Shown in pieces: positions 13,062 to 26,527 of a stretch of DNA of 64,000 nt. How positions within the stretch are numbered: the stretch's first letter is position 1; the number at the start of each line of letters is the position of its first letter. Below the pieces are notes generated by a model. That model was not told the DNA's origin. It did no database searches and saw only the letters and a list, made by a program, of their open reading frames with translations. The position numbers and the translations under genes are program-made. Source of the stretch: an uncultured Chloroflexia bacterium (GTDB lineage: Bacteria; Chloroflexota; Chloroflexia; Chloroflexales; Herpetosiphonaceae); NCBI GenBank assembly GCA_963767035.1, contig CAVYBW010000001.1:2310547-2374546 (forward strand). The letters are read 5' to 3'.

Positions 13062-13448
13062 ATGTCGCAAGCCTTGTTAATTTTTGATGGAACCTGCGAT
13101 TTTTGCACCCGCGCCGCCCGTTGGGTCAAACAGCTCGATCGTCAGCAACGGATTCGGATTGAGCCGTTTCAAAAGCCTGGCGTGCCCGAATCGGTTGGCT
13201 TAACCTATGCTCAATGCGAGCAAGCAGCGTGGCTGCAAACCAGCGAGGGAAAATTATGGCGCGGAGCTGGGTCGATTAATGCAGCGCTGAGCATTGCTAC
13301 GGGCAATGGTTTGCTTCTGAGTTTATATCAAATGTGGGGTATTCGCCAGCTTCAGGATGGCGTGTACAAACTGATTGTCAAACATCGCCATCGCATTCCA
13401 GGCGATACGCCGCATTGCCAACAATTCCCTGCCGATTGCCCGCGCTAA
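13062..13448 (+). CDS. DCC-family thiol-disulfide oxidoreductase (DUF393)
   Basis: N-terminal FDGTCDFC motif; AGGAG RBS 6 nt upstream. Confidence 0.75.
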   Translation: MSQALLIFDGTCDFCTRAARWVKQLDRQQRIRIEPFQKPGVPESVGLTYAQCEQAAWLQTSEGKLWRGAGSINAALSIATGNGLLLSLYQMWGIRQLQDGVYKLIVKHRHRIPGDTPHCQQFPADCPR

Positions 13449-13939
13449 GCTATGGCCAACTGTTCGAGCAGCCATTCGAAGGCCCGGGTAGCCGAAGCCT
13501 GTTTATTGCCCAAACGATCGTAGGGCCAAATATGCTGCTCGACCAAGCCTTGATTGGGCAAGTACAACCCTAAATAGACTAAGCCGACTGGTTTTTCGGC
13601 GCTGCCGCCACCTGGCCCAGCAATGCCAGTCGTGCTTATGCCAACCGTTGCCCCAAGCGCTTGCGCCGTGCCTTGGGCCATTGCTAAGGCGGTTTCAGCG
13701 CTCACCGCGCCGACGGTCGCTAGGGTTGAATTTGGCACATGCAAAAGCTGTTCTTTGGCGCTATTGGCATAGGCAATGATGCCACCCAAATACACCAGCG
13801 AACTTCCAGCAATATTGGTCAGCCAATCGCCCAACAAGCCGCCAGTACACGATTCGGCAGTGGCAAGCGTCCATTGGCGTTGTGCTAAAGCCGTAATTAC
13901 TGCTTGGGCTAAGGCTTGCGACATCGATTTATCCCTCAA
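13445..13939 (-). CDS. CinA C-terminal domain protein / nicotinamide-nucleotide amidohydrolase (PncC-like)
   Basis: TLATAESCTGGLL motif typical of the CinA C-terminal domain. Confidence 0.8.
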   Translation of the reverse strand: MRDKSMSQALAQAVITALAQRQWTLATAESCTGGLLGDWLTNIAGSSLVYLGGIIAYANSAKEQLLHVPNSTLATVGAVSAETALAMAQGTAQALGATVGISTTGIAGPGGGSAEKPVGLVYLGLYLPNQGLVEQHIWPYDRLGNKQASATRAFEWLLEQLAIA

Positions 13940-14085
13940 CGGCGTTTACTGAGCAAACCAAACGCCGATAAGCCCAAATAAATAACTGTGCCAATAATCA
14001 AGAGTTTAAAGCCTACTTTGAGCACTAGCCCAAGAACCCACAAGGCCACCAAGGCCAATACAATCCAACCAATTAAACGGGTCAT
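13936..14085 (-). CDS. Small membrane protein (about 49 aa, two TM segments)
   Basis: AAGGAG RBS; hydrophobic sequence; stop overlaps the upstream gene start. Confidence 0.4.
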   Translation of the reverse strand: MTRLIGWIVLALVALWVLGLVLKVGFKLLIIGTVIYLGLSAFGLLSKRR

Positions 14086-14167
14086 CATCGGCTCCTTACT
14101 AGCATAAACCAAGGTCTCAAGTGGCGGCGATTTCTGCTTTGGTAAATGAATGGAACGCCAACACCGT

Positions 14168-14446
14168 CTAGGATAAGCCAATATCCCAGGTTGCAGCAAT
14201 TTCTTCTTTGGTAAATGAACGGAAGGCTAAAACCGTCGAGGTGCGCACAATCCCCTTGAGGCTACCAATTTGGTCGGGCACAGTTTTGGCCAGTTGGTCA
14301 TAATCGGCCAAACGCACAATCGCGATAATATCCCATTCGCCAGTGACCGAATAGACCTCAGCCACACCTTCAATCGCAGTTAAGCCAGCCGCTACGCCAT
14401 TGGCGGCGCTTGGCTCAGTTTGAATATGCACAAATGCGGTGATCAT
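14168..14446 (-). CDS. Stand-alone Lrp/AsnC ligand-binding (RAM) domain protein
   Basis: 'VTGEWDIIAIVRLADYDQL...IVRTSTVL' matches the AsnC C-terminal domain; no HTH present. Confidence 0.65.
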   Translation of the reverse strand: MITAFVHIQTEPSAANGVAAGLTAIEGVAEVYSVTGEWDIIAIVRLADYDQLAKTVPDQIGSLKGIVRTSTVLAFRSFTKEEIAATWDIGLS

Positions 14447-14537
14447 CGCTGGTTCCTCGCCATAGCATCCAAAAATTCAGGCTTATTTTAACATATTCGC
14501 CAAGGTGCTGGCTTATGAGGGTTGATCGGTTAATAAT

Positions 14538-14746
14538 CCCTCACCACAACCCTGCTACCATGGTGCGAGCGAGGGGCTTTTTGTTGCGTAGTTTTGCCGT
14601 GATGCGTGAGACCAAGCGACATGTAACTCCCCCTGGCCGAGCAGGCGAGAGAGGGGTCTGGGGGTGAGGGAACGCTCAACCTTTGCCCATCCACCATACC
14701 ATCCTTGTGCGGCCTGCTCGGCGGGAGAGGGGCTGGGGGTCAGCGG
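14538..14746. repeat. Cluster of GC-rich hairpin repeat units (same family)
   Basis: CCTCACC...GCGAGGGGC and GGGGTCTGGGGGTGAGGGAAC units. Confidence 0.65.
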
Positions 14747-14939
14747 ACACTCCAATTTTCCTCATGATTCCTGCTTCGTACTTCATGCTTGATTATTTCG
14801 GGTGCGACTTTCAAAAAACGATAAAATATAGTAGGATTAGCACAACCGCGCAATGCGTCAAAAAGGGCGACTTTTTAAGCTTTTGACAGGCTGCCCACGC
14901 TCCTCTATCATGAGGATATTAATTTTTTAGCCATCGAGC

Positions 14940-15188
14940 ATGTGGTGTGGATGGGATATCATGGATTCGCAGCAACAGTTCGCCGCTGCCTCGCATTTGA
15001 CTGCTGATAATTTGCGTAGTATTGCGCATTCGATCTCAATCAGTCAGGTGTCGCGGTTGTCGTTGCCAGAGATCGATGCCGTTGTTGACCAAATCTCGCG
15101 GGTGGTGCCTGCTGGCAACGTGCCCGGGGTGATTTTAAGCGGTTTAGCCAAGTTTAACGGGCCGTCGGCCAGCAGGCAATGTAATTAA
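14940..15188 (+). CDS. Small hypothetical protein (74-82 aa) immediately upstream of the 721-aa gene
   Basis: ORF ends 8 nt before the next gene; no recognisable domain. Confidence 0.3.
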   Translation: MWCGWDIMDSQQQFAAASHLTADNLRSIAHSISISQVSRLSLPEIDAVVDQISRVVPAGNVPGVILSGLAKFNGPSASRQCN

Positions 15189-15195
15189 ACGTGAT

Positions 15196-17361
15196 GTGAA
15201 TCTCATGTTTCGCGGAGTTGAGCAAGCGCTTGATAAAGCGGTGTTTAGCACCTTCTTTGCTGGGCCAGCCGCAGTTATTTGGGGTTACCAAAAGCTGTTG
15301 GAGTTGGCAGGCAAAGATCCCCAAGATGCGTTTCCTGAAGGCACATGGCAATTTTATGTTGGCTATGCCTTGCGTGAGGATACTGCCCGCCACGCCAACG
15401 AAACTGTCGGCTTCGACGAAACACTGAACGATCATAAAATCAATTTGCCGCCGATCGACCGCATGACTGCTTGGGTCATGGCGGCAATTCATCTTCTCCA
15501 CAGTTACCCCGAATTGCTTGAAAATGAATGGCGCGAGCGGGTTTCGTTGGCCTTGCTGCGCGATCTGACCAAGGTTAATCCAGAAACCCGCCAATTTGCC
15601 GACCTCTACAGTCAATGGGAACGCCAACGCCCCTATGGCCGTGGCCCCGATGTGCAATCGCAGGAAACCTACGCTATCTATCGCAAACGTAAATTCGATG
15701 AATTTATGGCCGAATCAACCCGTGAATTGCCGAAAGAGCTGCGCGAACGCTGGGGCAAGCAGTTTCAACGCGCTCGTGAAATTGCGCTGCCAGCCTATCA
15801 ACGCCAAATGTCGTTGGCAGCATACCTCGATCCAACGCCCTATAACGAAAATATGGTGGCCTTGCCACGCCAAAGTTGGCATATTGGTTTAATCTGGCGC
15901 GGCCATTATTATTTGATTCCGGCCTGCGCCCCCAATAGCACGCGACCCAACGATGTGAGCAATGTGCGGAGCCAAATTGCCGCGTTGTTGGCAAGCCCCG
16001 CCAATCATGCCCCAACCTCGTTAATTCCCTTGGCAACCACCAAACGGGCAAGTTTGCCAAGCATTTTGGGCAAGCTGCGCCCCGAAACCAGCCAACAACT
16101 CGAAGCATTGCGTTGTGCCCCAATTTGGTTTAACGCCGATGGCCGACCACGCCATTTGCCTTTGGCCGAATTGCGCCTAACCGAACGGGCGCTTGGCGAC
16201 CACGGCTTAACCTTGATCGATACTGGCTCAAGTATGGTCTTTGATCAATCGCATATTTTCTTTGATGGTGCGTGGGGTTCAGCCGTCGCCGAAATTATGA
16301 CACTCGAAGCCTTGGCGTGGGCGGTCTATTTGCGTGGGCAACCGGCTCCAGTTGCGGGTACGGTGCGCCCATATGCCCCCAATATTGAGCTAAACGACGA
16401 GGAAAAACAAATCATCGCCGATAGCCCCAAGATTGTGGCCGAAGCCAGCGCCGAATCAATTGGGCTTGATCTGAAGAAGATTTTGGATTTACGCAAGTTG
16501 TTCAAGCAGCGTAACGACCAAATTCGGATCACGGTCAATGATATATTGGTGCTTTATCGCGCGATTCATGCGGTTTCCTACAAGCCCAATCCTGAGTTGC
16601 AAGTTTCGTTGCAAGAAGCCGCAAACGATGCCAATCTCAAAGCGGCGGTTGAAGCAACCATTACAGCCTTTGAAGAATCGCTCAGCAATCCCGCGATTTT
16701 AATTCCAGTTGATGGCAGCATTCCCAATCCCAGCGATCGCCTGCATCCCATGACTTTCGAGGTTCCACTGGAAGAACTTGAGATCAACAAATTGCATGAA
16801 CGGGCGTTGAGTTTACTTGATCAAGCTCGTCAAGAGTGGCGCGCCGAAGTTTGGGATACCTTTGAAGCCACCCAAAAGCATTATTTGGCCACGATTGCTG
16901 GCTTTGGCGAAGTTTCAGCTCGCGCCAAAGATATTGCCCAATCAGGTGAAAGCACTTCGTCTGGAGCTTTGCGCTTGTTGGCGCACGTACCGATGGCCTT
17001 ACAACGCTTGCTCGATGCGATTCCAGGCAAGTTCGACGTGCTCAACGATTTGATCAAAGGCCGCGAGGTGCTTTCAAATGTTGGCGCTGTCGCCGATACC
17101 AGCTCCCTGTCACGCTTTATCACCGCCAAAGACGATAACGAAAAGAAAACTTTGGCTTGGGGTGTGATTACCGATGCCAACGGCGTGATGCACGTTTCGC
17201 TGCGCGACTTCCGACCGCATGTTGGCTTGTTTGTGCAGGCTGGGCGGCGCGATTTGGCGCGGCGGATTGCCAATGATTACCTTGAAAGCTACGTCAATGG
17301 GCTTAATCGCTTTATCAGCGAACTGACCAAAATCACCCAAGGCCGCCATAGTCGCCAATGA
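15196..17361 (+). CDS. Large hypothetical protein (721 aa), no recognisable domain; GTG start at 15196 or ATG at 15205
   Basis: Long uninterrupted ORF with normal codon usage; directly upstream of the tandem kinase. Confidence 0.6.
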   Translation: MNLMFRGVEQALDKAVFSTFFAGPAAVIWGYQKLLELAGKDPQDAFPEGTWQFYVGYALREDTARHANETVGFDETLNDHKINLPPIDRMTAWVMAAIHLLHSYPELLENEWRERVSLALLRDLTKVNPETRQFADLYSQWERQRPYGRGPDVQSQETYAIYRKRKFDEFMAESTRELPKELRERWGKQFQRAREIALPAYQRQMSLAAYLDPTPYNENMVALPRQSWHIGLIWRGHYYLIPACAPNSTRPNDVSNVRSQIAALLASPANHAPTSLIPLATTKRASLPSILGKLRPETSQQLEALRCAPIWFNADGRPRHLPLAELRLTERALGDHGLTLIDTGSSMVFDQSHIFFDGAWGSAVAEIMTLEALAWAVYLRGQPAPVAGTVRPYAPNIELNDEEKQIIADSPKIVAEASAESIGLDLKKILDLRKLFKQRNDQIRITVNDILVLYRAIHAVSYKPNPELQVSLQEAANDANLKAAVEATITAFEESLSNPAILIPVDGSIPNPSDRLHPMTFEVPLEELEINKLHERALSLLDQARQEWRAEVWDTFEATQKHYLATIAGFGEVSARAKDIAQSGESTSSGALRLLAHVPMALQRLLDAIPGKFDVLNDLIKGREVLSNVGAVADTSSLSRFITAKDDNEKKTLAWGVITDANGVMHVSLRDFRPHVGLFVQAGRRDLARRIANDYLESYVNGLNRFISELTKITQGRHSRQ

Positions 17362-17462
17362 TGTGGCTACGAGCTGCGGGCTATTGGCTGAAATAATGAG
17401 CATCATTACAACACAATCAACGCTGGGTGTGACAATCAATGGCATAGTAGTAGGTTACCCTG

Positions 17463-17488
17463 TAGCCTATAGCCTATAGCCTATAGCC
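17463..17488. repeat. 7-bp tandem repeat (TAGCCTA) x about 3.7, ending 11 nt upstream of the kinase start codon
   Basis: Read directly: tagcctatagcctatagcctatagcc. Confidence 0.8.
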
Positions 17489-17499
17489 AAGATACTACT

Positions 17500-19722
17500 A
17501 TGACTGATGATCTGCTAGGAAAACAACTCGCCAATTTTCGCATCGACCGAGTTCTAGGCCGTGGTGGCATGGGCTTGATCTACGTCGGCCACGATATCAA
17601 ACTTGATCGGCCTGTGGCGATCAAGGTGATCGATGGGCGCTATCGTCAAGTGCCAAGCTATGCCGAGCGCTTTGTGCGCGAAGCCCGCGCCATCGCTACT
17701 TGGCGGCACGAGAATATCGTTCAGATCTACTACGCCGACGATACCAATAATCTCTATTATTTTGTAATGGAGTATATCGATGGCGTTGATCTTTCCAAAG
17801 TTTTAGCCCAATACACCAGCACTAGTAGCCTCTTGCCGCATAGCGCCGTGATCCATATTGCCCGTAGTTTGGCTAGTGCGCTCGATTATGCCCACAAAAA
17901 GGGCGTGATTCACCGCGACATCAAGCCATCAAATGTGATGGTGGCCCACGATCAGCGGGTGGTGTTGATGGATTTTGGCTTGGCGCTCGATACCCAGCTT
18001 GGCTCGCAGGGCGAAGTGTTTGGCACGGCCCACTACATCGCGCCTGAACAGGCTCGCCGCTCTGCCGATGCAATTCCGCAATCAGATTTATATGCTTTAG
18101 GCGTGATGTTGTATGAATTATTAACTGGCTCGGTGCCATTTGATGATCCATCGGCAACCAGCGTGGCTTTACAACATATCACCCAGCCACCGCCAGCGCC
18201 CCAAGAGAAAAACCCCAAACTCAATGATGCCACGGCAGCGGTGCTGGTCAAAGCGCTAGCCAAAGCGCCAGCTGATCGTTTTCAAACCGGTGCCGAGCTG
18301 ATGGCGGCTTTAGAACAAGCTTTGGAGGTTACAGGTAGTCATCAAATTGCGGCGAATGCCAATGTTGCGCCTGGTGTACGGCCACCATCACAGCCTGGAG
18401 CATTAGGCTTTGCCACCTTCGACCCCGAAAAACCCTTGGAAGGCCAATATCTCGATGGCTATCGGGTTGAATCGTTGCTCGGTCGCGGCGGGATGGCCAA
18501 CATCTTCCGTGGAGTCGATGTGCGGCTCAATCGCACGGTGGCGATCAAAGTTATCGATACGCCATTCCGCAACGATCAAAGCTATGCCGAACGTTTCAAC
18601 CGCGAAGCCCAAGCGATTGCCCAGCTCGAACATCCCAATATTGTGCGGCTCTATCACTATGGCGATTCCTATGGCCTGTTGTATATGGTGATGGAATATA
18701 TCGAAGGCCAAAATCTGCACAAAGTGATCGAGCAGGTACGCACCAGCGCCCAAGAATGGACACCGCGCACGCTGTGCCGCATGATTCGCGAAATCTGTGC
18801 AGCGTTGGATTATGCACATAGCAAGGGCGTAATCCATCGCGATGTCAAACCATCGAATATTATGATCAACAAAGATGGTCGGGCAATTTTGGCCGATTTT
18901 GGCTTGGCCTTGTTGACCGAGGTTGGCACCCGTGGTGAGATTTTTGGCTCGCCGCATTATGTGGCACCGGAGCAGGCAATCTCATCGGCCAAGGTTGTGC
19001 CTCAAACCGATCTCTACAGTTTGGGCGTGATTTTATATGAGCTTTGGACGGGTCAAGTGCCGTTTGACGATGCTGATCCGTTGGCAATTGCCATGTTGCA
19101 TATGGCCGAGCCACCCAAAGCGCCACGCTCGATCAATCCGGCTATTTCGGCCCAACTTGAGGCTGTGATTCTCAAAATGTTGGCCAAAGATCCTGCCGAA
19201 CGCTTTCCGACTGGGGTTGATTTGGCTGAAGCGTTGGAAGCAGCGCTGGGCATTTCATCGACTGGCACAGGCGAATATGTACGTAGCCAAATCACGCCAG
19301 TGCTTGATCAAGCAGTTAATGCGCCAAGTGCGCCAGCGATTTCAACTCCAACGCCAGTGGTTATCGCAACTGAGCCAACCTCACCTAAAACTGCCAGCCA
19401 GCCAATTTCCAACGTATTGCCAGCAGAGTCGTTACCAACCCCGCCAACACCTGCAAACAAATACGAGAAAGCGCCTTCTGAGCCAACCAAACGGCGGGTG
19501 CAGCCATTGCCGCCAACGCCAGCCGCCGTCGCCAAAGCTCCCGAGCCAACCAGCGCGCCGACGCTGCCCATGCCACCAGCCGATAACACTATTCGCGAAG
19601 CGCCAGCCCCGCGTTTGTATACCAATCGGCAACAACGCAGCAGCCTTTTGATGATGCTGCTTGGTGTGATTGCGCTGATCTTTTTTATCGTGCTGATCTG
19701 GCAACTAGCCAACATGATCTAA
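17500..19722 (+). CDS. Ser/Thr protein kinase with two complete tandem catalytic domains, a Pro-rich linker and a C-terminal TM anchor
   Basis: Both domains carry GRGGM glycine loop, VAIK, HRDxKPSN, DFG, APE. Confidence 0.85.
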   Translation: MTDDLLGKQLANFRIDRVLGRGGMGLIYVGHDIKLDRPVAIKVIDGRYRQVPSYAERFVREARAIATWRHENIVQIYYADDTNNLYYFVMEYIDGVDLSKVLAQYTSTSSLLPHSAVIHIARSLASALDYAHKKGVIHRDIKPSNVMVAHDQRVVLMDFGLALDTQLGSQGEVFGTAHYIAPEQARRSADAIPQSDLYALGVMLYELLTGSVPFDDPSATSVALQHITQPPPAPQEKNPKLNDATAAVLVKALAKAPADRFQTGAELMAALEQALEVTGSHQIAANANVAPGVRPPSQPGALGFATFDPEKPLEGQYLDGYRVESLLGRGGMANIFRGVDVRLNRTVAIKVIDTPFRNDQSYAERFNREAQAIAQLEHPNIVRLYHYGDSYGLLYMVMEYIEGQNLHKVIEQVRTSAQEWTPRTLCRMIREICAALDYAHSKGVIHRDVKPSNIMINKDGRAILADFGLALLTEVGTRGEIFGSPHYVAPEQAISSAKVVPQTDLYSLGVILYELWTGQVPFDDADPLAIAMLHMAEPPKAPRSINPAISAQLEAVILKMLAKDPAERFPTGVDLAEALEAALGISSTGTGEYVRSQITPVLDQAVNAPSAPAISTPTPVVIATEPTSPKTASQPISNVLPAESLPTPPTPANKYEKAPSEPTKRRVQPLPPTPAAVAKAPEPTSAPTLPMPPADNTIREAPAPRLYTNRQQRSSLLMMLLGVIALIFFIVLIWQLANMI

Positions 19723-19729
19723 TGTGTAT

Positions 19730-19937
19730 CCTCAACCTCCAACCCTCTCGCCTCACAAGGGTTGGTTTTTAACAATGGACTGGTGGATGGGCAACGTTTT
19801 TGCGTTCCCTCACCCCCTCACCCCCTCTCCCGCACACGAGGCGAGGGGGAACCGATTGCGACATCCCATGAAGCAACAAAACCACGGCGTTAAGCCCCTC
19901 TCTCGTGGCGCGGAAGAGGGGTTGGGGTGAGGGAACG
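19730..19937. repeat. Cluster of GC-rich hairpin repeat units (same family)
   Basis: CCCTCACCCCCTCACCCCCTCTCCCGCACACGAGGCGAGGGGG; AGCCCCTCTCTCGTGGCGCGGAAGAGGGGTTGGGGTGAGGGAAC. Confidence 0.65.
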
Positions 19938-20093
19938 CAAAACCCTGTTGCTCCCGCCCAAAATTGTGGAACGAATCAGGCTGTTAACTCCTAGCCTACA
20001 ATCCAAGTCCAATCGAGAACTGATGGACAGAATTCATTGCAGCCGTACAATTGCATTGATCGATTTTGATCCATCAATGTGGATGAGGTAGCT

Positions 20094-21011
20094 ATGCTTG
20101 AGCGTTATCGTGGCTGTTTGTTGGGGTTGGCTGTTGGCGATGCAGTTGGAACGACAGTGGAATTTAGCCCACCAGGTTCATTTAAACCACTGACCGATAT
20201 GGTTGGTGGTGGGCCATTTAATTTACCGCTAGGCGCGTGGACAGACGATACCTCGATGGCGTTATGCTTGGCAGCAAGTCTGATCGAGCGTCAAGGCTTC
20301 GATGCAGTTGATCAGATGCAGCGCTATTGTCGTTGGCGTGATTACGGTTATATGAGCAGCACTGGCTCGTGTTTTGATTGTGGCATTACGGTTGGCAAAG
20401 CACTAAGCACATTTCAAAGCACTGGCGATCCTTATAGTGGCTCGACCGATCCATCAACTGCGGGCAATGGCTCGTTGATGCGCTTGGCGCCGGTAGTTTT
20501 GGCCTATGCCAGCCAACCAGAGCAGGCCATGCAGCTGGCGGTTGATAGCTCGCGCACCACTCATGGCGCACTTGCGGCACTTGATGCCTGTCGTTATTTC
20601 GCTGGTTTGTTAATTGGCGCATTGAATGGAGTGGATAAGGCTGAATTGCTGGCTCCGCACTATAGCCCCATTGCTAATTATTGGCAGCAACAACCATTGC
20701 ACGCTGATATTGCTGAGATTGCCGCTGGCTCGTTTTGGCAGCGCCAACCGCCCGAAATTCAAGGTACTGGCTATGTGGTGCGCTCGCTTGAAGCGGCGTT
20801 ATGGGCTTTTGCTCATAGCGATTCATTCCGCGAAGGTTGTTTGCTAGCGGCGAATCTTGGCCACGATGCTGATACCACTGCGGCAATTTATGGCCAAATT
20901 GCCGGAGCCTACTACAGCGAGGCTGGAATTCCCGAAGCATGGCGCAACCCGATTGTTAGCCACGATCTGATTGTTGAATTTGCCGAACGGCTTTATCGCT
21001 TCAGCCATTAA
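20094..21011 (+). CDS. ADP-ribosylglycohydrolase family protein (DraG-like)
   Basis: N-terminal GxLLGxAVGDAxG and WTDDTSMALC motifs; C-terminal GHDADTTAAIYGQIAGAYY. Confidence 0.8.
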   Translation: MLERYRGCLLGLAVGDAVGTTVEFSPPGSFKPLTDMVGGGPFNLPLGAWTDDTSMALCLAASLIERQGFDAVDQMQRYCRWRDYGYMSSTGSCFDCGITVGKALSTFQSTGDPYSGSTDPSTAGNGSLMRLAPVVLAYASQPEQAMQLAVDSSRTTHGALAALDACRYFAGLLIGALNGVDKAELLAPHYSPIANYWQQQPLHADIAEIAAGSFWQRQPPEIQGTGYVVRSLEAALWAFAHSDSFREGCLLAANLGHDADTTAAIYGQIAGAYYSEAGIPEAWRNPIVSHDLIVEFAERLYRFSH

Positions 21012-21034
21012 ATCTGGGAGTAGGATAGTACACC

Positions 21035-21172
21035 GTTCCCTCACCCCAACCCCGCTCTCGTGGCGCGGGCGAGGGGCTTAATCTTGTGGTTGTTCGTTGA
21101 TGCATGGGCACTCAACGGATGCTCCTCCTCGCCCGCGTGCAGTGGGCGAGGAGGTCAGGGGGTGAGGAAATC
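21035..21172. repeat. Two GC-rich hairpin repeat units (same family)
   Basis: GCTCCTCCTCGCCCGCGTGCAGTGGGCGAGGAGGTCAGGGGGTGAGG. Confidence 0.65.
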
Positions 21173-23142
21173 TTAGGGCAGCAAGCGTAGGCGTTGAATT
21201 GTGACAGGCTGTTGCTCAGCGCCCGCCACGACCGGATCAAGCCGCAGCATGCCAATTGGGCCTTGCCAAGTTGGAATTTGGCTCAGATCAAGCGTATAGG
21301 TATGCAGCTTGCCATCGCCAATTACATCCCAAATAACCGAACGATCTTCGGTTGCGCCTTGACCTGGTGCCATCCAATAGAGTTGGCCGTGTTGGTTGGG
21401 CAAGCTTGTGGCCATAGTAATTTCAAGTTTGCGCCATTGGTTGCTCTCCAGCGTGATGCGTGGGCTGAGCAAATGTGGGTCTTGCTCAGGCAGAAATTGC
21501 CAGCCATCAGCCCATGTGCTCTCAGCAATAAAATTTCCGCGCCAGCCCAAACTCCAATGCTGCCAATGCCAATCGGGCAAGCCTTGGGGAATCGGATCAA
21601 GCTTAAAGTAGTTGGCATGAGTCAGGCTGATTGGCTGGGCTTGTTGCAGAAATGGGGCAAAACAGTCAGCCACCGCTTGTTGCTCAAGCCCATAGCGTTC
21701 GAGCAAAATTGGGCTAGGCTTGACTGCCTGCTGATCGAGCCACACTGTGTAGCCAGCGCTGGTGGTATCAACAATTTTGGCGCTAATTTCCATGCAGCCA
21801 TGCTGCCAATCGCCAGGGCTGACGCTGAGTGGCAAACTATTTGGCCGTTCAAACTCATATTCGGCATATAAGGCTTGCAAGCCATTTGGCACCAGATAAA
21901 AATCATTGCTGGTGCCAGCCTGCGCCAATTCAGTTATCTGGGTACGATCTTGATCGTTGGCACGATCGCCATTACGCCTGATTTGCCAGCCATTGCTCAA
22001 AGCCATGCCCAGCAGCACCAAACTAAGGGCGGGCTGCAACCAACGCCAATCTGGCAGATTAATGCTATTCAGCGCCAAGCTAACGAGCAAGGCCCATGGC
22101 GGCAAGCAGGCGATCCAAAACTCAATATTATCTGGCTCCCACCAGCCAAAAAAAAGGCTGTAGCTTACAAGCCATGTTATGGCCAGCAACACCAACGGTC
22201 GTGATTGCTGCCAAATTCGTCGCCAGCGCCATACAATCAGGCCGAGGCTTGCCAGTAATAGCACTCCGCCCAACCAGCAATGAATCGTATGCTGCCAACC
22301 ACTGAGCAGATTGCCAATAGTCGAGGCACTTGGCGTAGCGCCCCACAAACCAGTATTGGCATATTCAAATAGCCATTGTTGAATTTGGCCCAGCTGCGAA
22401 AACCACTCAAGCCAAAGATCACAATGGCATAGCTGCCGCCAACCACTAGCAAACCAACGCTGGCATAATGCAACAATCCGCGCCAGCGTTGGCTCCATGG
22501 CGTGGCCGCCCAATCGGCGCTCAGCCACACCGCCAGTACCGGCACAAGCCACAGCACATTGGTTTGATGAAACAAAATTGCACCACTATGGGCTAAGCCA
22601 AGCCAACGCCAAGTGGCCAAACTCTGCGGCGTTTCGGCTAAGCGCATCAACAGGCCAGTGGCAATAATTAAAAACAAGCCAGCCAAGGTATAGACCTCGA
22701 CCTCAACTGCGTAATACCACCAAGCGTAAGCACCGCCCAGCAACAAACTGCCGATCGTTGCTAGCCAAGCGTGCTTGGTCAAGCGGCGAAGCAAGTTCCA
22801 CCAGATGATCACGCCGCTTGCGCCAGCCAGCACATTAAGCAATTGTAACGGCCCAAACGCCATGCCCTGATAGCCCAAAGCTTGGCTGAATCCATACACA
22901 ATCTCGCCAAGCGGCCCATACAACAAATGATGGGGGTGAAACGATTCGCGCCAAGGTTTGGCTTGCACCGCCGTCGCATACGAGTAGGCATCGAAGGTAT
23001 GAATTTGGGTCAGCGTCAGGCTATAGAGTACAACCAAGCCCAGCCACGCCAAACCAAGCTTTAAACGAAATTGTTGCTGCATTGCGGTTTCCAAAAAGCG
23101 CGCTAAAACAAAGACACAGCCTGTTGTTACAGACTGTGCCAT
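21173..23142 (-). pseudogene. GT-C-like polytopic membrane glycosyltransferase-like protein split into two overlapping frames (22237..23142 and 21173..22552); probable frameshift near 22380
   Basis: Both ORFs encode a continuous many-TM protein plus C-terminal soluble domain; the ORFs overlap by 316 nt in different frames. Confidence 0.4.
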
Positions 23143-23165: not shown

Positions 23166-25427
23166 TTATTTGGTTGTCCAAGGCAGATAAACCCGATACT
23201 CAACCGTTGGAGCCGTCACGATAACCGTACCTTGCATGCTGCCATGTAAACTACAGACATAGCTGAAACTGCCAACTTGATCGAAGCTTACCGCGTAATC
23301 TTGGTTTTGGCTAAGATTGCCTGAATCCCAAGTGAACGGGGTTTGGCTGCGAGTTGCGGTATGTGATGCACTATCGAGATTGCGCCACAATACGCTAGTA
23401 CCCAAGGTAACCGTAATTGGGCTTGGGCTGAAGCGGAAGTTTTGAATATTGATGGTTTGGGTTGTGGTGTAGGCGAAATTTTGAGTTACGGTCTGATTGA
23501 GCGCAACGGTGACCGTCGCCACTTGGGTTTCCAAAGCCATCAATTCGCTGGCGATGGTGTAGGTGCCGGGCGCTAAGGCCAAGCTGTAGACACCTTGGGC
23601 GTTGGTTTCGGTAGTAAGGTTACCTGGGTTGGCGGTGATAAGCACACCAGCACGGCCAGTGCCGTTGAGCGTTACTGTACCAGTTGCCGTCCCAGTTGGT
23701 ATTCCACCAAAGGCAAAGTTTTCAGTTGCAACTTGGCCTTTGACAATCGTTACTTGACGGGTAATTGGGGTTTGGTTTGGCACAGTTACGGTGGCAGTAT
23801 AGTTGCCTGATGGCAAGCTAGTGCTATATACGCCAGTCGTTTTGCCAAATTCAACCACGCCGACGCTATTTTCCAAGCGCACGGTTGCTGAGGTTGCGGC
23901 GGTGCCATTAACCGTGATGCTGCCTTGTAAGGTTGGGGCAATCGCGGTCAAGGCATTGACATAGCCATGGCCAAACGTGTTGTTTGGAATGCTGGTGCCA
24001 GGTACGCCACCACAGGTTTGGGTTGAAGGTGCAGCCGTAGCAGTTTCTTGCAAAATTGCCCGAGTCAGATCAATTTGACCTTGCAATTCAGGGCGAGCCG
24101 ACCATAACAAGGCCACGACGCCGACCACGTGTGGGCTAGCCATACTGGTACCGCTATAGGTGCTATCATAGCTCGTATCGCTGGTTCTGGTTGCTGAACG
24201 GACACTGACCCCTGGAGCTGAAATGTCGGGGCCAATCCGGCTAACGCTATTGTTGGTGGCTGGGCCACGGCTACTAAATGAGGCAATTGCACCCGTTGAG
24301 CTATGTGCACCAACCACAAAACTCTCTGGGTAAATTGCAACTGGTGTCGTGATCGTGGCACAACTGCCGCCATCATTACCAGCCGAAGCTACGAACATAA
24401 TCCCAGCGTTGGTCACGTTTTGAACTGAGGTCTGAATGCCATCAGATGATGTATTAGTACAACCTTCTGATGCTGGACAGCCCCACGAGTTGTTGACCAC
24501 ATGCGGTGCTTTGCTTGGATCGCCTTGAGCGCTTGTGCCAGCGGTTGGGAATGGAGCCAACATCCAGTCGATACAACGGATGTAGGTTGCAGGCGTGCCG
24601 TTGCCAGCATCCATGTTGCGGCAGGCGATCCATTTAGCACCGGGAGCAACCCCGATTTGTTCGCCAGAGCCGTTATCACCAACCACCGTACCAACGGTGT
24701 GCGTACCGTGTGAGTTATCGTCACATGGGACGTTCAGTGCCAAACCACAAGGGTTAGTGCCACCTAACGAAGTACGAATGCCGTCATACCAGTTGTAATC
24801 GTGGCTAGCAGTCGTGCCGTCCCAGCCGCGATACTTGCTTTTCAAGGCGGTGTGCGTCCAGCGAACGCCAGTATCTTCGCCAGCAATCACAATGCCTTGG
24901 CCAGTAAAGCCTTTGGCCCACACTTCAGGTGCTTTGACATAGTTAACGCCCCAAGTTGTGGTGTTGACTGCTTGTGGCCCAGGCGTGGTTTCGACAACTG
25001 GTTTTTCGACCTTGACCACAATCGTATCTTCGATCAATTGCTTGACGCTAGCTTGTTCGGCCAACCATTGAGCGCTGGCTAAATCAAGCGTGGCATACAA
25101 GGCATTGACTGAGAGAAAGCCTTCGGATTGAATTCCACGATTGCTGAGTTCGGTCAAAAGCGGAGTTTGATCGCGTTGGGCTTGTTGGCGCAGAGCAGCC
25201 ACAACCGCAGCACCTTTCGCTTCTTTACTTGCCAAACGATCAGCGAAATTGGTGTCGACTTGGGCCTGCAACAAGACCAGGGTTGGTACCTGTTGGCCTG
25301 CATTCAGCTTTGCCAGTAGGTCGGAATCGGCCTTGCGAGCCAAAAGGTCGGGGGTGTTGGCGGAGGCGCTTGGCAGACAAAAGCCTGCTAACACCATCAG
25401 AAGAATGAATGGTTTGATCAGACGCAT
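23166..25427 (-). CDS. Secreted subtilisin-like (S8) serine protease with Ig-like/CarboxypepD_reg-like domains and a C-terminal cupredoxin-like domain
   Basis: Signal peptide; GGGAG RBS; Asp (DTGV), His (HGTHTVGT) and Ser (GTSMASPHV) catalytic motifs; C-terminal H...C-x2-H-x2-M pattern. Confidence 0.8.
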   Translation of the reverse strand: MRLIKPFILLMVLAGFCLPSASANTPDLLARKADSDLLAKLNAGQQVPTLVLLQAQVDTNFADRLASKEAKGAAVVAALRQQAQRDQTPLLTELSNRGIQSEGFLSVNALYATLDLASAQWLAEQASVKQLIEDTIVVKVEKPVVETTPGPQAVNTTTWGVNYVKAPEVWAKGFTGQGIVIAGEDTGVRWTHTALKSKYRGWDGTTASHDYNWYDGIRTSLGGTNPCGLALNVPCDDNSHGTHTVGTVVGDNGSGEQIGVAPGAKWIACRNMDAGNGTPATYIRCIDWMLAPFPTAGTSAQGDPSKAPHVVNNSWGCPASEGCTNTSSDGIQTSVQNVTNAGIMFVASAGNDGGSCATITTPVAIYPESFVVGAHSSTGAIASFSSRGPATNNSVSRIGPDISAPGVSVRSATRTSDTSYDSTYSGTSMASPHVVGVVALLWSARPELQGQIDLTRAILQETATAAPSTQTCGGVPGTSIPNNTFGHGYVNALTAIAPTLQGSITVNGTAATSATVRLENSVGVVEFGKTTGVYSTSLPSGNYTATVTVPNQTPITRQVTIVKGQVATENFAFGGIPTGTATGTVTLNGTGRAGVLITANPGNLTTETNAQGVYSLALAPGTYTIASELMALETQVATVTVALNQTVTQNFAYTTTQTINIQNFRFSPSPITVTLGTSVLWRNLDSASHTATRSQTPFTWDSGNLSQNQDYAVSFDQVGSFSYVCSLHGSMQGTVIVTAPTVEYRVYLPWTTK

Positions 25428-25525
25428 AGGCTCCCCACACAGGTAAAAGATATTAAGCTTAACTGCAAGTATAGCAAACTTTTGAGCATGGTAAAATAGC
25501 ATGATGCTGATAGATTGCGACATGC

Positions 25526-26527
25526 TTGAAATGGACGACCATGGAAGATTTTTTACGCCGCGCAGCGGCTGATTTACATATTGGGGTTGAACAAACTACC
25601 CCGACCACCTGGACATTGACCATCCCCGGCAGTTTGGCGCGGGTTTTTGGCAAAGAAACAGTTTTGGTAACCACCGATAAGCAGGTTGCGGCACTTGATC
25701 CTGACCTTCAATTGCTTTCGCCCAACTCATCGTTGACCTTGCGCTTAGCCGAACAATTGCGCTCACGCGGGCGGCCAACCCATCGCGCCCGCTTGGAATG
25801 GTATCCCGATCAAGCGGCGTTGCTGTCCGATGTGCAGGAAGCTCAATTAATTCAGGGGACAGCGCTGCAAATTAGCGCCTTGCAACAACACATCGTGCTG
25901 CGCATTACTTTCCGCATTCGCTTCGAGCGCGAAGTGATCGAGGAGAAAATGGTAGCCTGCTGTGTTGATTATGAAACTGGCCATGTTTGGCCAACCATCA
26001 CCGATATTACCAATTTGCGCGAACAACTCATGCCCTTGCCCTCAACTGGCCTGACCGAGGAACATGTGAATGTCTCGTTGCATCACGCTCGCCGCTGGCT
26101 CGAACGCTTACTTTACCCCCAAAAAGCGCTGCACGAGGCCCAACTTGCCCAATTGTTAGCCGTTGAAAAAGCACGGATTAATGCCTTCTACGATGCCTTA
26201 GAGGAAGATTCGGGCCTTGCCTTGGGAGCCAAAGAAGGCGAATCGAACAAACAATATGCGCTTGAAGAAGAACGCAAACGCTTGCTCGATGAACAAGAGT
26301 ATCGCTATGCCTTGTCGTTGGCCGCCGAAACCGTCAGTGTTGCGACGCTGCAAGTGCCAGTATTGCACATTGGTAGCAAACAACAACCGCAATTAATCGC
26401 CATTTCGCCATTGTTTGAGCCAATGATTCAGTTGCCACATTGCCAAACCTGTGGTCGCCAAGCAAGTTTGGTTCAACATCAAGCGCAGCTTGTCTGCAAT
26501 GTTTGCCATCAGGTGCTCGCCCAATAA
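25526..26527 (+). CDS. Hypothetical protein with a C-terminal zinc-ribbon-like CxxC...CxxC; TTG start at 25526 or ATG at 25541
   Basis: ORF divergent from the protease gene; CQTCGRQ...CNVCHQ motif. Confidence 0.5.
   Translation: MKWTTMEDFLRRAAADLHIGVEQTTPTTWTLTIPGSLARVFGKETVLVTTDKQVAALDPDLQLLSPNSSLTLRLAEQLRSRGRPTHRARLEWYPDQAALLSDVQEAQLIQGTALQISALQQHIVLRITFRIRFEREVIEEKMVACCVDYETGHVWPTITDITNLREQLMPLPSTGLTEEHVNVSLHHARRWLERLLYPQKALHEAQLAQLLAVEKARINAFYDALEEDSGLALGAKEGESNKQYALEEERKRLLDEQEYRYALSLAAETVSVATLQVPVLHIGSKQQPQLIAISPLFEPMIQLPHCQTCGRQASLVQHQAQLVCNVCHQVLAQ

Follow-up and report, generated by a model that had tools for sequence, protein, structure and literature searches.

A secreted subtilisin-like protease with a predicted amicyanin-type cupredoxin module in Herpetosiphonaceae

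A 64,000-nucleotide stretch of DNA from an uncultured Chloroflexia bacterium of the family Herpetosiphonaceae (assembly GCA_963767035.1, contig CAVYBW010000001.1), referred to here at its whole length as the window, encodes on its minus strand a 753-amino-acid (aa) pre-pro-subtilase with a predicted type-1 copper cupredoxin module (23166..25427, stop codon at 23166-23168). That a protease and a blue-copper domain occur together in one gene, as an earlier note on this DNA had observed from the letters alone, is confirmed. Counted from its first ATG, the open reading frame (ORF) spans 23166..25523 and comprises 785 aa, but the start at 25427 is preferred over the upstream ATG at 25523, because the internal Met at 25427 opens MRLIKPFILLMVLAGFCLPSASA followed by N, which reads as a typical Sec signal peptide, and because the orthologues of all five named Herpetosiphon species align starting exactly at this residue. 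A Shine-Dalgarno-like GGGGAG appears to lie 3 nt 5' of the preferred ATG (25431..25436, minus strand), and a 753-aa protein held in NCBI/ENA (P0001) is 100% identical to the window product.

Three domains are recognized by Pfam in the 753-aa product (Peptidase_S8, Cupredoxin_1, and Copper-bind), and its description as an exported modular subtilisin-like protease, composed of an S8 core, two spacers, one amicyanin-type cupredoxin, and a seven-residue C-terminal tag, is well supported, with high confidence in the identity of the individual parts. The Peptidase S8 catalytic domain occupies residues 176-488 (23964..24902, minus strand) and matches PF00082 over profile positions 1-288 of 288 with 136.7 bits against a cut-off of 21.8 (E 1.3e-39). 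The catalytic triad is complete and consists of D185 (24873-24875) in the motif GEDTG, H240 (24708-24710) in HGTHT, and S428 (24144-24146) in GTSMASP, all on the minus strand, with N351 of a SAGN motif as the oxyanion-hole residue. In an alignment restricted to 36 S8 proteins, the triad, N351, and eight cysteines (C227/235/269/285/317/323/356/472) are invariant, and such a set of cysteines is as expected for an enzyme that is predicted to be extracellular and disulfide-bonded. A mixed alignment of full-length S8 proteins and standalone cupredoxins was discarded, as the short sequences fell on the protease region.

The remaining parts of the protease portion were assigned by inspection, weak profile matches, and structure prediction. 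The putative Sec signal peptide comprises residues 1-23 (MRLIKPFILLMVLAGFCLPSASA; 25359..25427, minus strand) and was recognized by eye, with an A-x-A before the cleavage site. It is followed by an I9-like propeptide of approximately residues 24-138 and a disordered linker of residues 139-155 (together 24948..25358, minus strand), both defined from a full-length AlphaFold2 model (mean predicted local distance difference test score, pLDDT, of 81) in which the propeptide, the catalytic core, and two β-sandwiches are confident. The propeptide is predicted to adopt a β-α-β-β-α-β fold (strands 47-53, 101-103, 109-114, and 128-133; helices 68-96 and 116-123) with pLDDT >90, and the linker falls below 50. 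There is no Pfam I9 match to this region, and its I9-like assignment derives from topology alone. These features agree with the earlier description of the protein as a secreted S8 subtilase, with a putative signal peptide, a putative propeptide, a complete D/H/S triad, and an oxyanion Asn.

Two domains separate the catalytic core from the copper module. The first spacer (residues ~496-578; 23694..23942, minus strand) is CarboxypepD_reg/PEGA-like by its AlphaFold2 model and a weak PEGA match, with strands spanning 500-573 at pLDDT 80-92, and the second (residues ~579-655; 23463..23693, minus strand) is CarboxypepD_reg-like, with strands at 579-653 and a CarbopepD_reg_2 match at 582-655 that scores 23.7 bits, below the cut-off of 32.2 (E 4.9e-5). 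Each sandwich is modelled as seven-stranded. The families PF13620/PF13715 are recorded for the orthologues P0003 and P0004, with PF13715 on P0003. The spacers had been called Ig-like in the earlier note; they are indeed modelled as β-sandwich domains, but probably of the CarboxypepD_reg/transthyretin-like kind and not Ig proper.

The predicted type-1 copper cupredoxin module itself comprises residues 656-741 (23205..23462, minus strand) and was identified by two Pfam families. Cupredoxin_1 (PF13473, residues 638-737) scores 31.4 bits in the whole protein and 34.3 with the domain alone against a cut-off of 27, and Copper-bind (PF00127, residues 657-737) scores 25.9 and 30.8 bits against 21.2, so that the search for such families that the note had proposed returned both above threshold. 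The module would almost certainly bind one copper through H689 (23361-23363), C725 (23253-23255), H728 (23244-23246), and an axial M731 (23235-23237; all minus strand), the first supplied by the string SASHTAT and the other three by YVCSLHGSMQG. Both strings and the Cys-x2-His-x2-Met motif are present as the note had given them, though the gap between the first His and the Cys is 35 residues rather than 37, and the spacing of the C-x2-H-x2-M loop is identical to that of amicyanin, as had been proposed. A six-frame translation of the window contains the motif H-x(30-45)-C-x2-H-x2-M a single time, compared with 0.07 times per shuffled window. The 753-aa protein contains no further copper-ligand motif, its only other domains being the S8 and CarboxypepD_reg-like ones, and the module would take no part in peptide-bond hydrolysis.

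Comparison with solved structures places the module firmly within the cupredoxins. A phmmer search of the last 106 aa against PDB sequences retrieved 9CCK, matched over 72 residues of its C-terminal cupredoxin (E 2.7e-11), and amicyanins (E 5e-7 to 5e-4, with 1ID2 at 5e-7), and the His, Cys, His, and Met of the window module align with the ligands of both. An AlphaFold2 model of the last 105 aa, built from a 52-sequence alignment, reached a mean pLDDT of 90.6, and a Foldseek search of the PDB placed amicyanins first (E 5e-9, template modelling score 0.72-0.73, root-mean-square deviation 1.5-1.6 Å). This search gave 231 matches at E<=1e-3, and all 50 of the matches listed are cupredoxin-fold domains, mostly from amicyanin, plastocyanin, and pseudoazurin but also from NirK and a multicopper oxidase, CuA, and a Cupredoxin_1 protein of B. 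anthracis. The claim of a C-terminal cupredoxin domain is therefore borne out by both profile scores and an amicyanin-like predicted fold, and the C-terminal end did not model as the non-cupredoxin β-sandwich that would have spoken against it.

Conservation of the site has been assessed at several distances. The module retains all 11 columns that are invariant in the 52-sequence cupredoxin alignment, the four ligands among them, and all S8 fusions that were found keep the ligands, even at a domain identity as low as 37%, which answers the question of ligand conservation that the note had raised. Across six Herpetosiphon species the ligands are invariant and other residues of the copper loop vary (SLHGSM vs TLHSNM). 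The ratio of non-synonymous to synonymous substitution (dN/dS, Nei-Gojobori), calculated between the window gene and an H. aurantiacus-type orthologue, is 0.080 in the cupredoxin and 0.063 in the catalytic domain, with the spacers at 0.10-0.17. Copper-free cupredoxin-like folds exist, and the module might accordingly be a degenerate or copper-free spacer of this fold, or else an annotation or assembly artefact joining two genes; the low confidence of the full-length model in this region could be counted in favour of this reading. This explanation is largely refuted and retains only a very slight probability, as the module has conserved both its four ligands and every family-invariant residue, modelling of the domain by itself gave high confidence, the C-terminal tag usual in this clade is encoded in frame behind the module, and the same continuous ORF recurs in independent assemblies of six Herpetosiphon genomes and two distant lineages.

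The family to which the module belongs was reached only with a profile, since a single-sequence, word-indexed search with the domain gave 2 matches and a 7-sequence profile was required. It consists of proteins of ~120-140 aa whose source names are "cupredoxin family copper-binding protein" or plastocyanin, and an exhaustive search recovered 24,118 cluster representatives at E<=1e-3. The standalone members, anchored by an N-terminal transmembrane segment or as lipoproteins, are 40-54% identical to the module and share its invariant residues, and two of them (P0145 and P0226) also share the linker and YxPxxT[KR] tag of the window protein. Multi-cupredoxin surface proteins, in contrast to the single copy placed behind a protease here, carry tandem copies together with SLH or type IX secretion system (T9SS) anchors. 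Large proteins of this kind among P0241-P0390 contain 3-12 tandem cupredoxins (P0241, 1154 aa, 10 copies; P0242, 3670 aa, 12 copies), some with SLH anchors, T9SS tails, or PKD or BNR domains, and by a crude count at least 442 of 703 tandem copies keep the C-x2-H-x2-M loop. Such surface arrays of type-1 copper sites could act as extracellular electron conduits.

Amicyanin of Paracoccus (PDB 1ID2, 1AAC) shares with the window module its Greek-key fold, its four ligands, and its minimal C-x2-H-x2-M loop, but the window module is only ~22-24% identical to it and has a His-Cys gap of 35 residues where amicyanin has 38. The amicyanin equivalog TIGR02657 gives 27.9 bits for the whole protein and 32.4 for the domain, far short of its cut-off of 110.2, and no mau or methylamine dehydrogenase genes were found among the 20 larger ORFs (at least 164 aa) annotated between ~8.7 and 38.4 kb of the window, which constitute the neighbourhood considered here. 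Amicyanin is moreover a free periplasmic protein and the electron acceptor of methylamine dehydrogenase, in contrast to a module fused to a protease. The module is thus not an amicyanin sensu stricto, and "amicyanin-like" covers its loop and fold only.

The closest solved relative, the archaeal two-domain multicopper oxidase Nmar_1354, likewise bears a type-1 module appended by a linker to the C-terminus of an enzyme, as does the NirK of Thermus scotoductus (6HBE) with its pendant C-terminal cupredoxin. The "dangling" cupredoxin of Nmar_1354 (MCO4, 9CCK) is metalated, with a standard His2Cys site and a weak axial Met (PMC11761707). These modules feed the copper centres of their own enzyme, 13.5 Å away, whereas the host in the window is a serine hydrolase without a redox centre, and the host redox copper centres that define the NirK/MCO4 type are absent from it. 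No precedent for a type-1 copper domain on a hydrolase without redox chemistry was found in the literature searched.

In the main alternative reading, the protein is a bifunctional fusion, the cupredoxin serving as a one-electron carrier at the cell surface, as its membrane-anchored or tagged standalone homologues would, and the protease as a co-exported passenger or scaffold. Its partner would be unlinked and could be a respiratory complex, a multicopper oxidase, or a nitrite reductase encoded elsewhere. In its favour, strong purifying selection acts on a complete type-1 site, thousands of small, anchored, standalone cupredoxins that are typical electron carriers make up the nearest relatives, the best-matching solved structure is that of a pendant domain for electron transfer, and the fusion has been retained in at least three lineages; a fused cassette may also have kept the function of the standalone cupredoxin-plus-tag proteins. 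Against this, the protein has no redox centre of its own and no redox or copper genes lie within ~14 kb, the module hangs by two spacers on a protease of a freely secreted type, syntenic orthologues lack the module or have an inert spacer in its place, and a tethered carrier beside an active protease is an odd design. Such a role is, on balance, less likely than not. Should the module transfer electrons, the extracellular redox carriers of monoderm Chloroflexota could be delivered as passengers on secreted enzymes.

A combination of a cupredoxin with a peptidase-type fold is known from EfeO, which consists of an N-terminal Cup cupredoxin and a C-terminal peptidase-M75/imelysin-like domain. The M75 domain of EfeO is metal-binding and non-proteolytic, and the protein belongs to an iron-uptake system. 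EfeO and the window protein both join a cupredoxin of the PF13473 kind to a domain classed as a peptidase, although in the opposite order, and efeU and efeB are not present here; the comparison extends as far as the Pfam assignment.

The fusion is rare. A C-x2-H-x2-M motif or cupredoxin was found in 5 of the 120 closest S8 relatives and an S8 domain in none of the 150 best cupredoxin representatives, and full-text literature searches for a protease-cupredoxin fusion, or for a Herpetosiphon subtilase of this kind, returned nothing relevant, in keeping with the earlier judgement that a blue-copper domain on an extracellular protease is unusual. Within the genus it is universal among the genomes sampled. 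A full-length orthologue, 88-91% identical to the window protein, is present in 5/5 Herpetosiphon species of a one-genome-per-species collection, giving six of six Herpetosiphon genomes with the fusion, all with the same start, the four ligands, and the YLPWTTK end. Beyond the genus it was found in P0005, which is 56% identical and has one spacer, a cupredoxin, and the tail FMPLLRR, and in P0015, which is 49% identical and carries the cupredoxin between the protease and SLH anchors in an SLH-rich locus. Orthologues appear in databases as "S8 family serine peptidase," "Peptidase S8 and S53..." (A9B6W6), or "Bacillopeptidase F," and public annotation therefore conceals the cupredoxin domain. The fusion is a rare, genus-conserved, and undescribed architecture assembled from two well-known families, and not a new kind of system.

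The protease gene forms part of a conserved three-gene block together with a 333-aa protein in divergent orientation (25526-26527, plus strand) and a membrane protein (21173-23142, minus strand). The 333-aa protein is cytoplasmic, matches no Pfam family, and has C-terminal CxxC...CxxC motifs. The block is present in all Herpetosiphon genomes and in more distant metagenome-assembled genomes of Herpetosiphonaceae and Chloroflexia (49-64% identity), with or without a cupredoxin, and it also surrounds three orthologues that lack the module, namely P0004 with three spacers, P0010 with fewer, and P0012 with none. The pre-pro-catalytic core of other modular secreted subtilases in the same S8 clade is 45-58% identical to that of the window protein; the nearest S8 orthologues share its spacers, synteny, and tag, from which it differs in having a redox-metal accessory module. 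C-terminal regions across the clade vary widely and include SLH, a T9SS tail, dockerin/cohesin, GH9, CAP, and PKD.

The position of the module within this variable region suggests how it may have been gained. In Herpetosiphon the cupredoxin sits exactly between "...NFAY" and the tail, and the corresponding slot in syntenic orthologues holds a third spacer or nothing, the tail of the cupredoxin-less proteins following directly after the last spacer (...DFVFFDVRNTLYLPLVLR, ...DFAFEGAAPPSKVWLPLTMR). Standalone examples are P0145 and P0226, each made up of a leader and a cupredoxin followed by a five-residue linker and a similar tail (...VYLPIITK and ...LYIPLVTR), and a "cupredoxin + tag" cassette existing elsewhere could have taken the place of the protease gene's original 3' end. 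Because the slot is variable in syntenic orthologues and because such standalone cupredoxin-plus-tag proteins exist, we infer a cassette-type acquisition of the module, or module shuffling in a modular secreted enzyme. When 111 modules are ranked by identity to those of P0005 and P0015, the Herpetosiphon module comes only 62nd-96th, whereas the P0005 and P0015 modules rank 2nd-4th to one another; this conflict with S8 similarity hints at several acquisitions, or at a swap, as far as can be read from identity ranks of a ~85-residue domain, which are not a phylogeny.

The cupredoxin is not the extreme C-terminus of the protein, as it is followed by a 12-residue segment composed of a short linker (residues 742-746) and the tag YLPWTTK (residues 747-753; 23169..23189, minus strand). 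The tag is identical in six Herpetosiphon species and conforms to a consensus of approximately [YFWH]-[LMFI]-P-[LIWFM]-x-x-[KR]-COOH, with no transmembrane helix 3' of it. It terminates 15 of the 120 closest S8 relatives, irrespective of the preceding domain, as well as 2 of 270 unrelated standalone cupredoxins, and it matched none of 19,500 internal 12-mers. Three consecutive secreted peptidases at one locus, an S8-Kelch giant, an S8 protease, and an M14 peptidase, all end in it (L018:5872, L018:8871, and L018:12152), and further gene ends with the tag lie at L017:8250, L019:7749, L020:7929, and L010:5764. Literature searches on the tail motif returned nothing relevant. It has the look of a so far undescribed signal for the sorting or secretion of Chloroflexota-type secreted proteins, and it may be the more important finding for understanding how proteins are sorted in this phylum.

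The adjoining gene 3' of the protease encodes a 635-aa polytopic membrane protein with a large C-terminal domain, for which no Pfam or PDB relatives were found. It was considered as a cupredoxin-specific partner and rejected, being also syntenic with cupredoxin-less orthologues; a link to the tag as its processing enzyme is unsupported, the gene not being located beside distant tag-bearing genes. No copper or redox genes occur within ~14 kb on either side of the protease gene, and neither the window nor any of the flanks contains a second cupredoxin.

Taken together, these observations favour a reading in which the cupredoxin is a copper-stabilized, non-catalytic accessory module in the stalk between protease and tag. 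The protein would be exported by the Sec pathway and its signal peptide removed, the I9-like propeptide presumably being autoprocessed as in other subtilases, and the C-terminal stalk, perhaps with the tag, may set the final location of the enzyme. The module could then act as a rigid, protease-resistant spacer or as a docking unit, its copper site being kept by selection if the holo-form is the stable form beside an active protease. This accessory role is preferred because the slot is otherwise occupied by an inert sandwich or empty, the host has no redox centre, and there are no local copper or redox genes. The explanation taken whole, from export to the accessory function, is assigned a probability of roughly 0.55; the copper-stabilized stalk or docking function within it is put forward tentatively, at somewhat short of even odds, and the role of the copper module as such is graded equally cautiously. 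If the module is a copper-stabilized spacer only, it would provide an example of a metal site retained for stability beside a protease.

Several considerations weigh against this accessory role or limit its strength. An intact, conserved type-1 site is equally expected of an electron-transfer domain, so that conservation does not separate the two roles, and the partners of cupredoxins are often encoded elsewhere, which makes the lack of suitable neighbours weak evidence. Copper binding, any redox activity, localization, and processing are all predictions; the signal peptide was assigned by inspection and the propeptide by topology; and the census of fusions covers the best 120 S8 matches and the best 150 cupredoxin representatives. 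The full-length model is weak over the cupredoxin (pLDDT 37-70, with only 4 alignment rows there), and because of this low confidence neither inter-domain contacts nor packing can be derived from it.

A role in copper handling, whether as extracellular capture or sensing, scavenging of prey copper, or copper- or redox-dependent gating of the protease, would be compatible with the conservation of the ligands. Type-1 sites bind copper very tightly, and numerous hydrolases are secreted by Herpetosiphon, a predatory genus. However, no type-1 site is known to serve as an exchangeable copper-delivery site, and copper transport or homeostasis genes are absent within ~14 kb; such a role is quite improbable. 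A more far-reaching proposal would combine a real second activity, in which proteolysis is coupled to a copper-dependent switch or scavenger, or the module is an electron-transfer station exposed at the surface, with a "cupredoxin + YxPxxx[KR]" cassette that marks the cargo of an undescribed Chloroflexota tag-sorting pathway and with an adaptive, not incidental, reason why S8 proteases captured the module repeatedly (Herpetosiphon vs P0005/P0015). That all three should hold jointly is improbable.

A number of further observations concern the surroundings of the gene. In the window, the membrane-protein gene is represented by two overlapping ORFs (22237..23142 and 21173..22552) with a change of frame at ~22376-22388, whereas in the five named Herpetosiphon species it is one uninterrupted frame of ~635 aa (one tblastn segment each); the frameshift reflects either a pseudogene or a sequencing error. 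At the H. aurantiacus-type locus (L002), next in line after this gene come an AsnC regulator, a small ORF, and CinA, and compared with that arrangement the window seems to hold extra genes at ~14000-21100, between the membrane-protein gene and CinA (13445-13939). These encode a 721-aa protein without a Pfam match (15196-17361), a 740-aa protein with two Ser/Thr kinase domains (17500-19722), and an ADP-ribosylglycohydrolase (20079-21011). On the other side of the protease gene, positions 31269-32696 (plus strand) encode a 475-aa protein with a Band_7/SPFH domain, a Major Vault Protein shoulder, and weak vault-repeat matches, an architecture resembling that of the Major Vault Protein.

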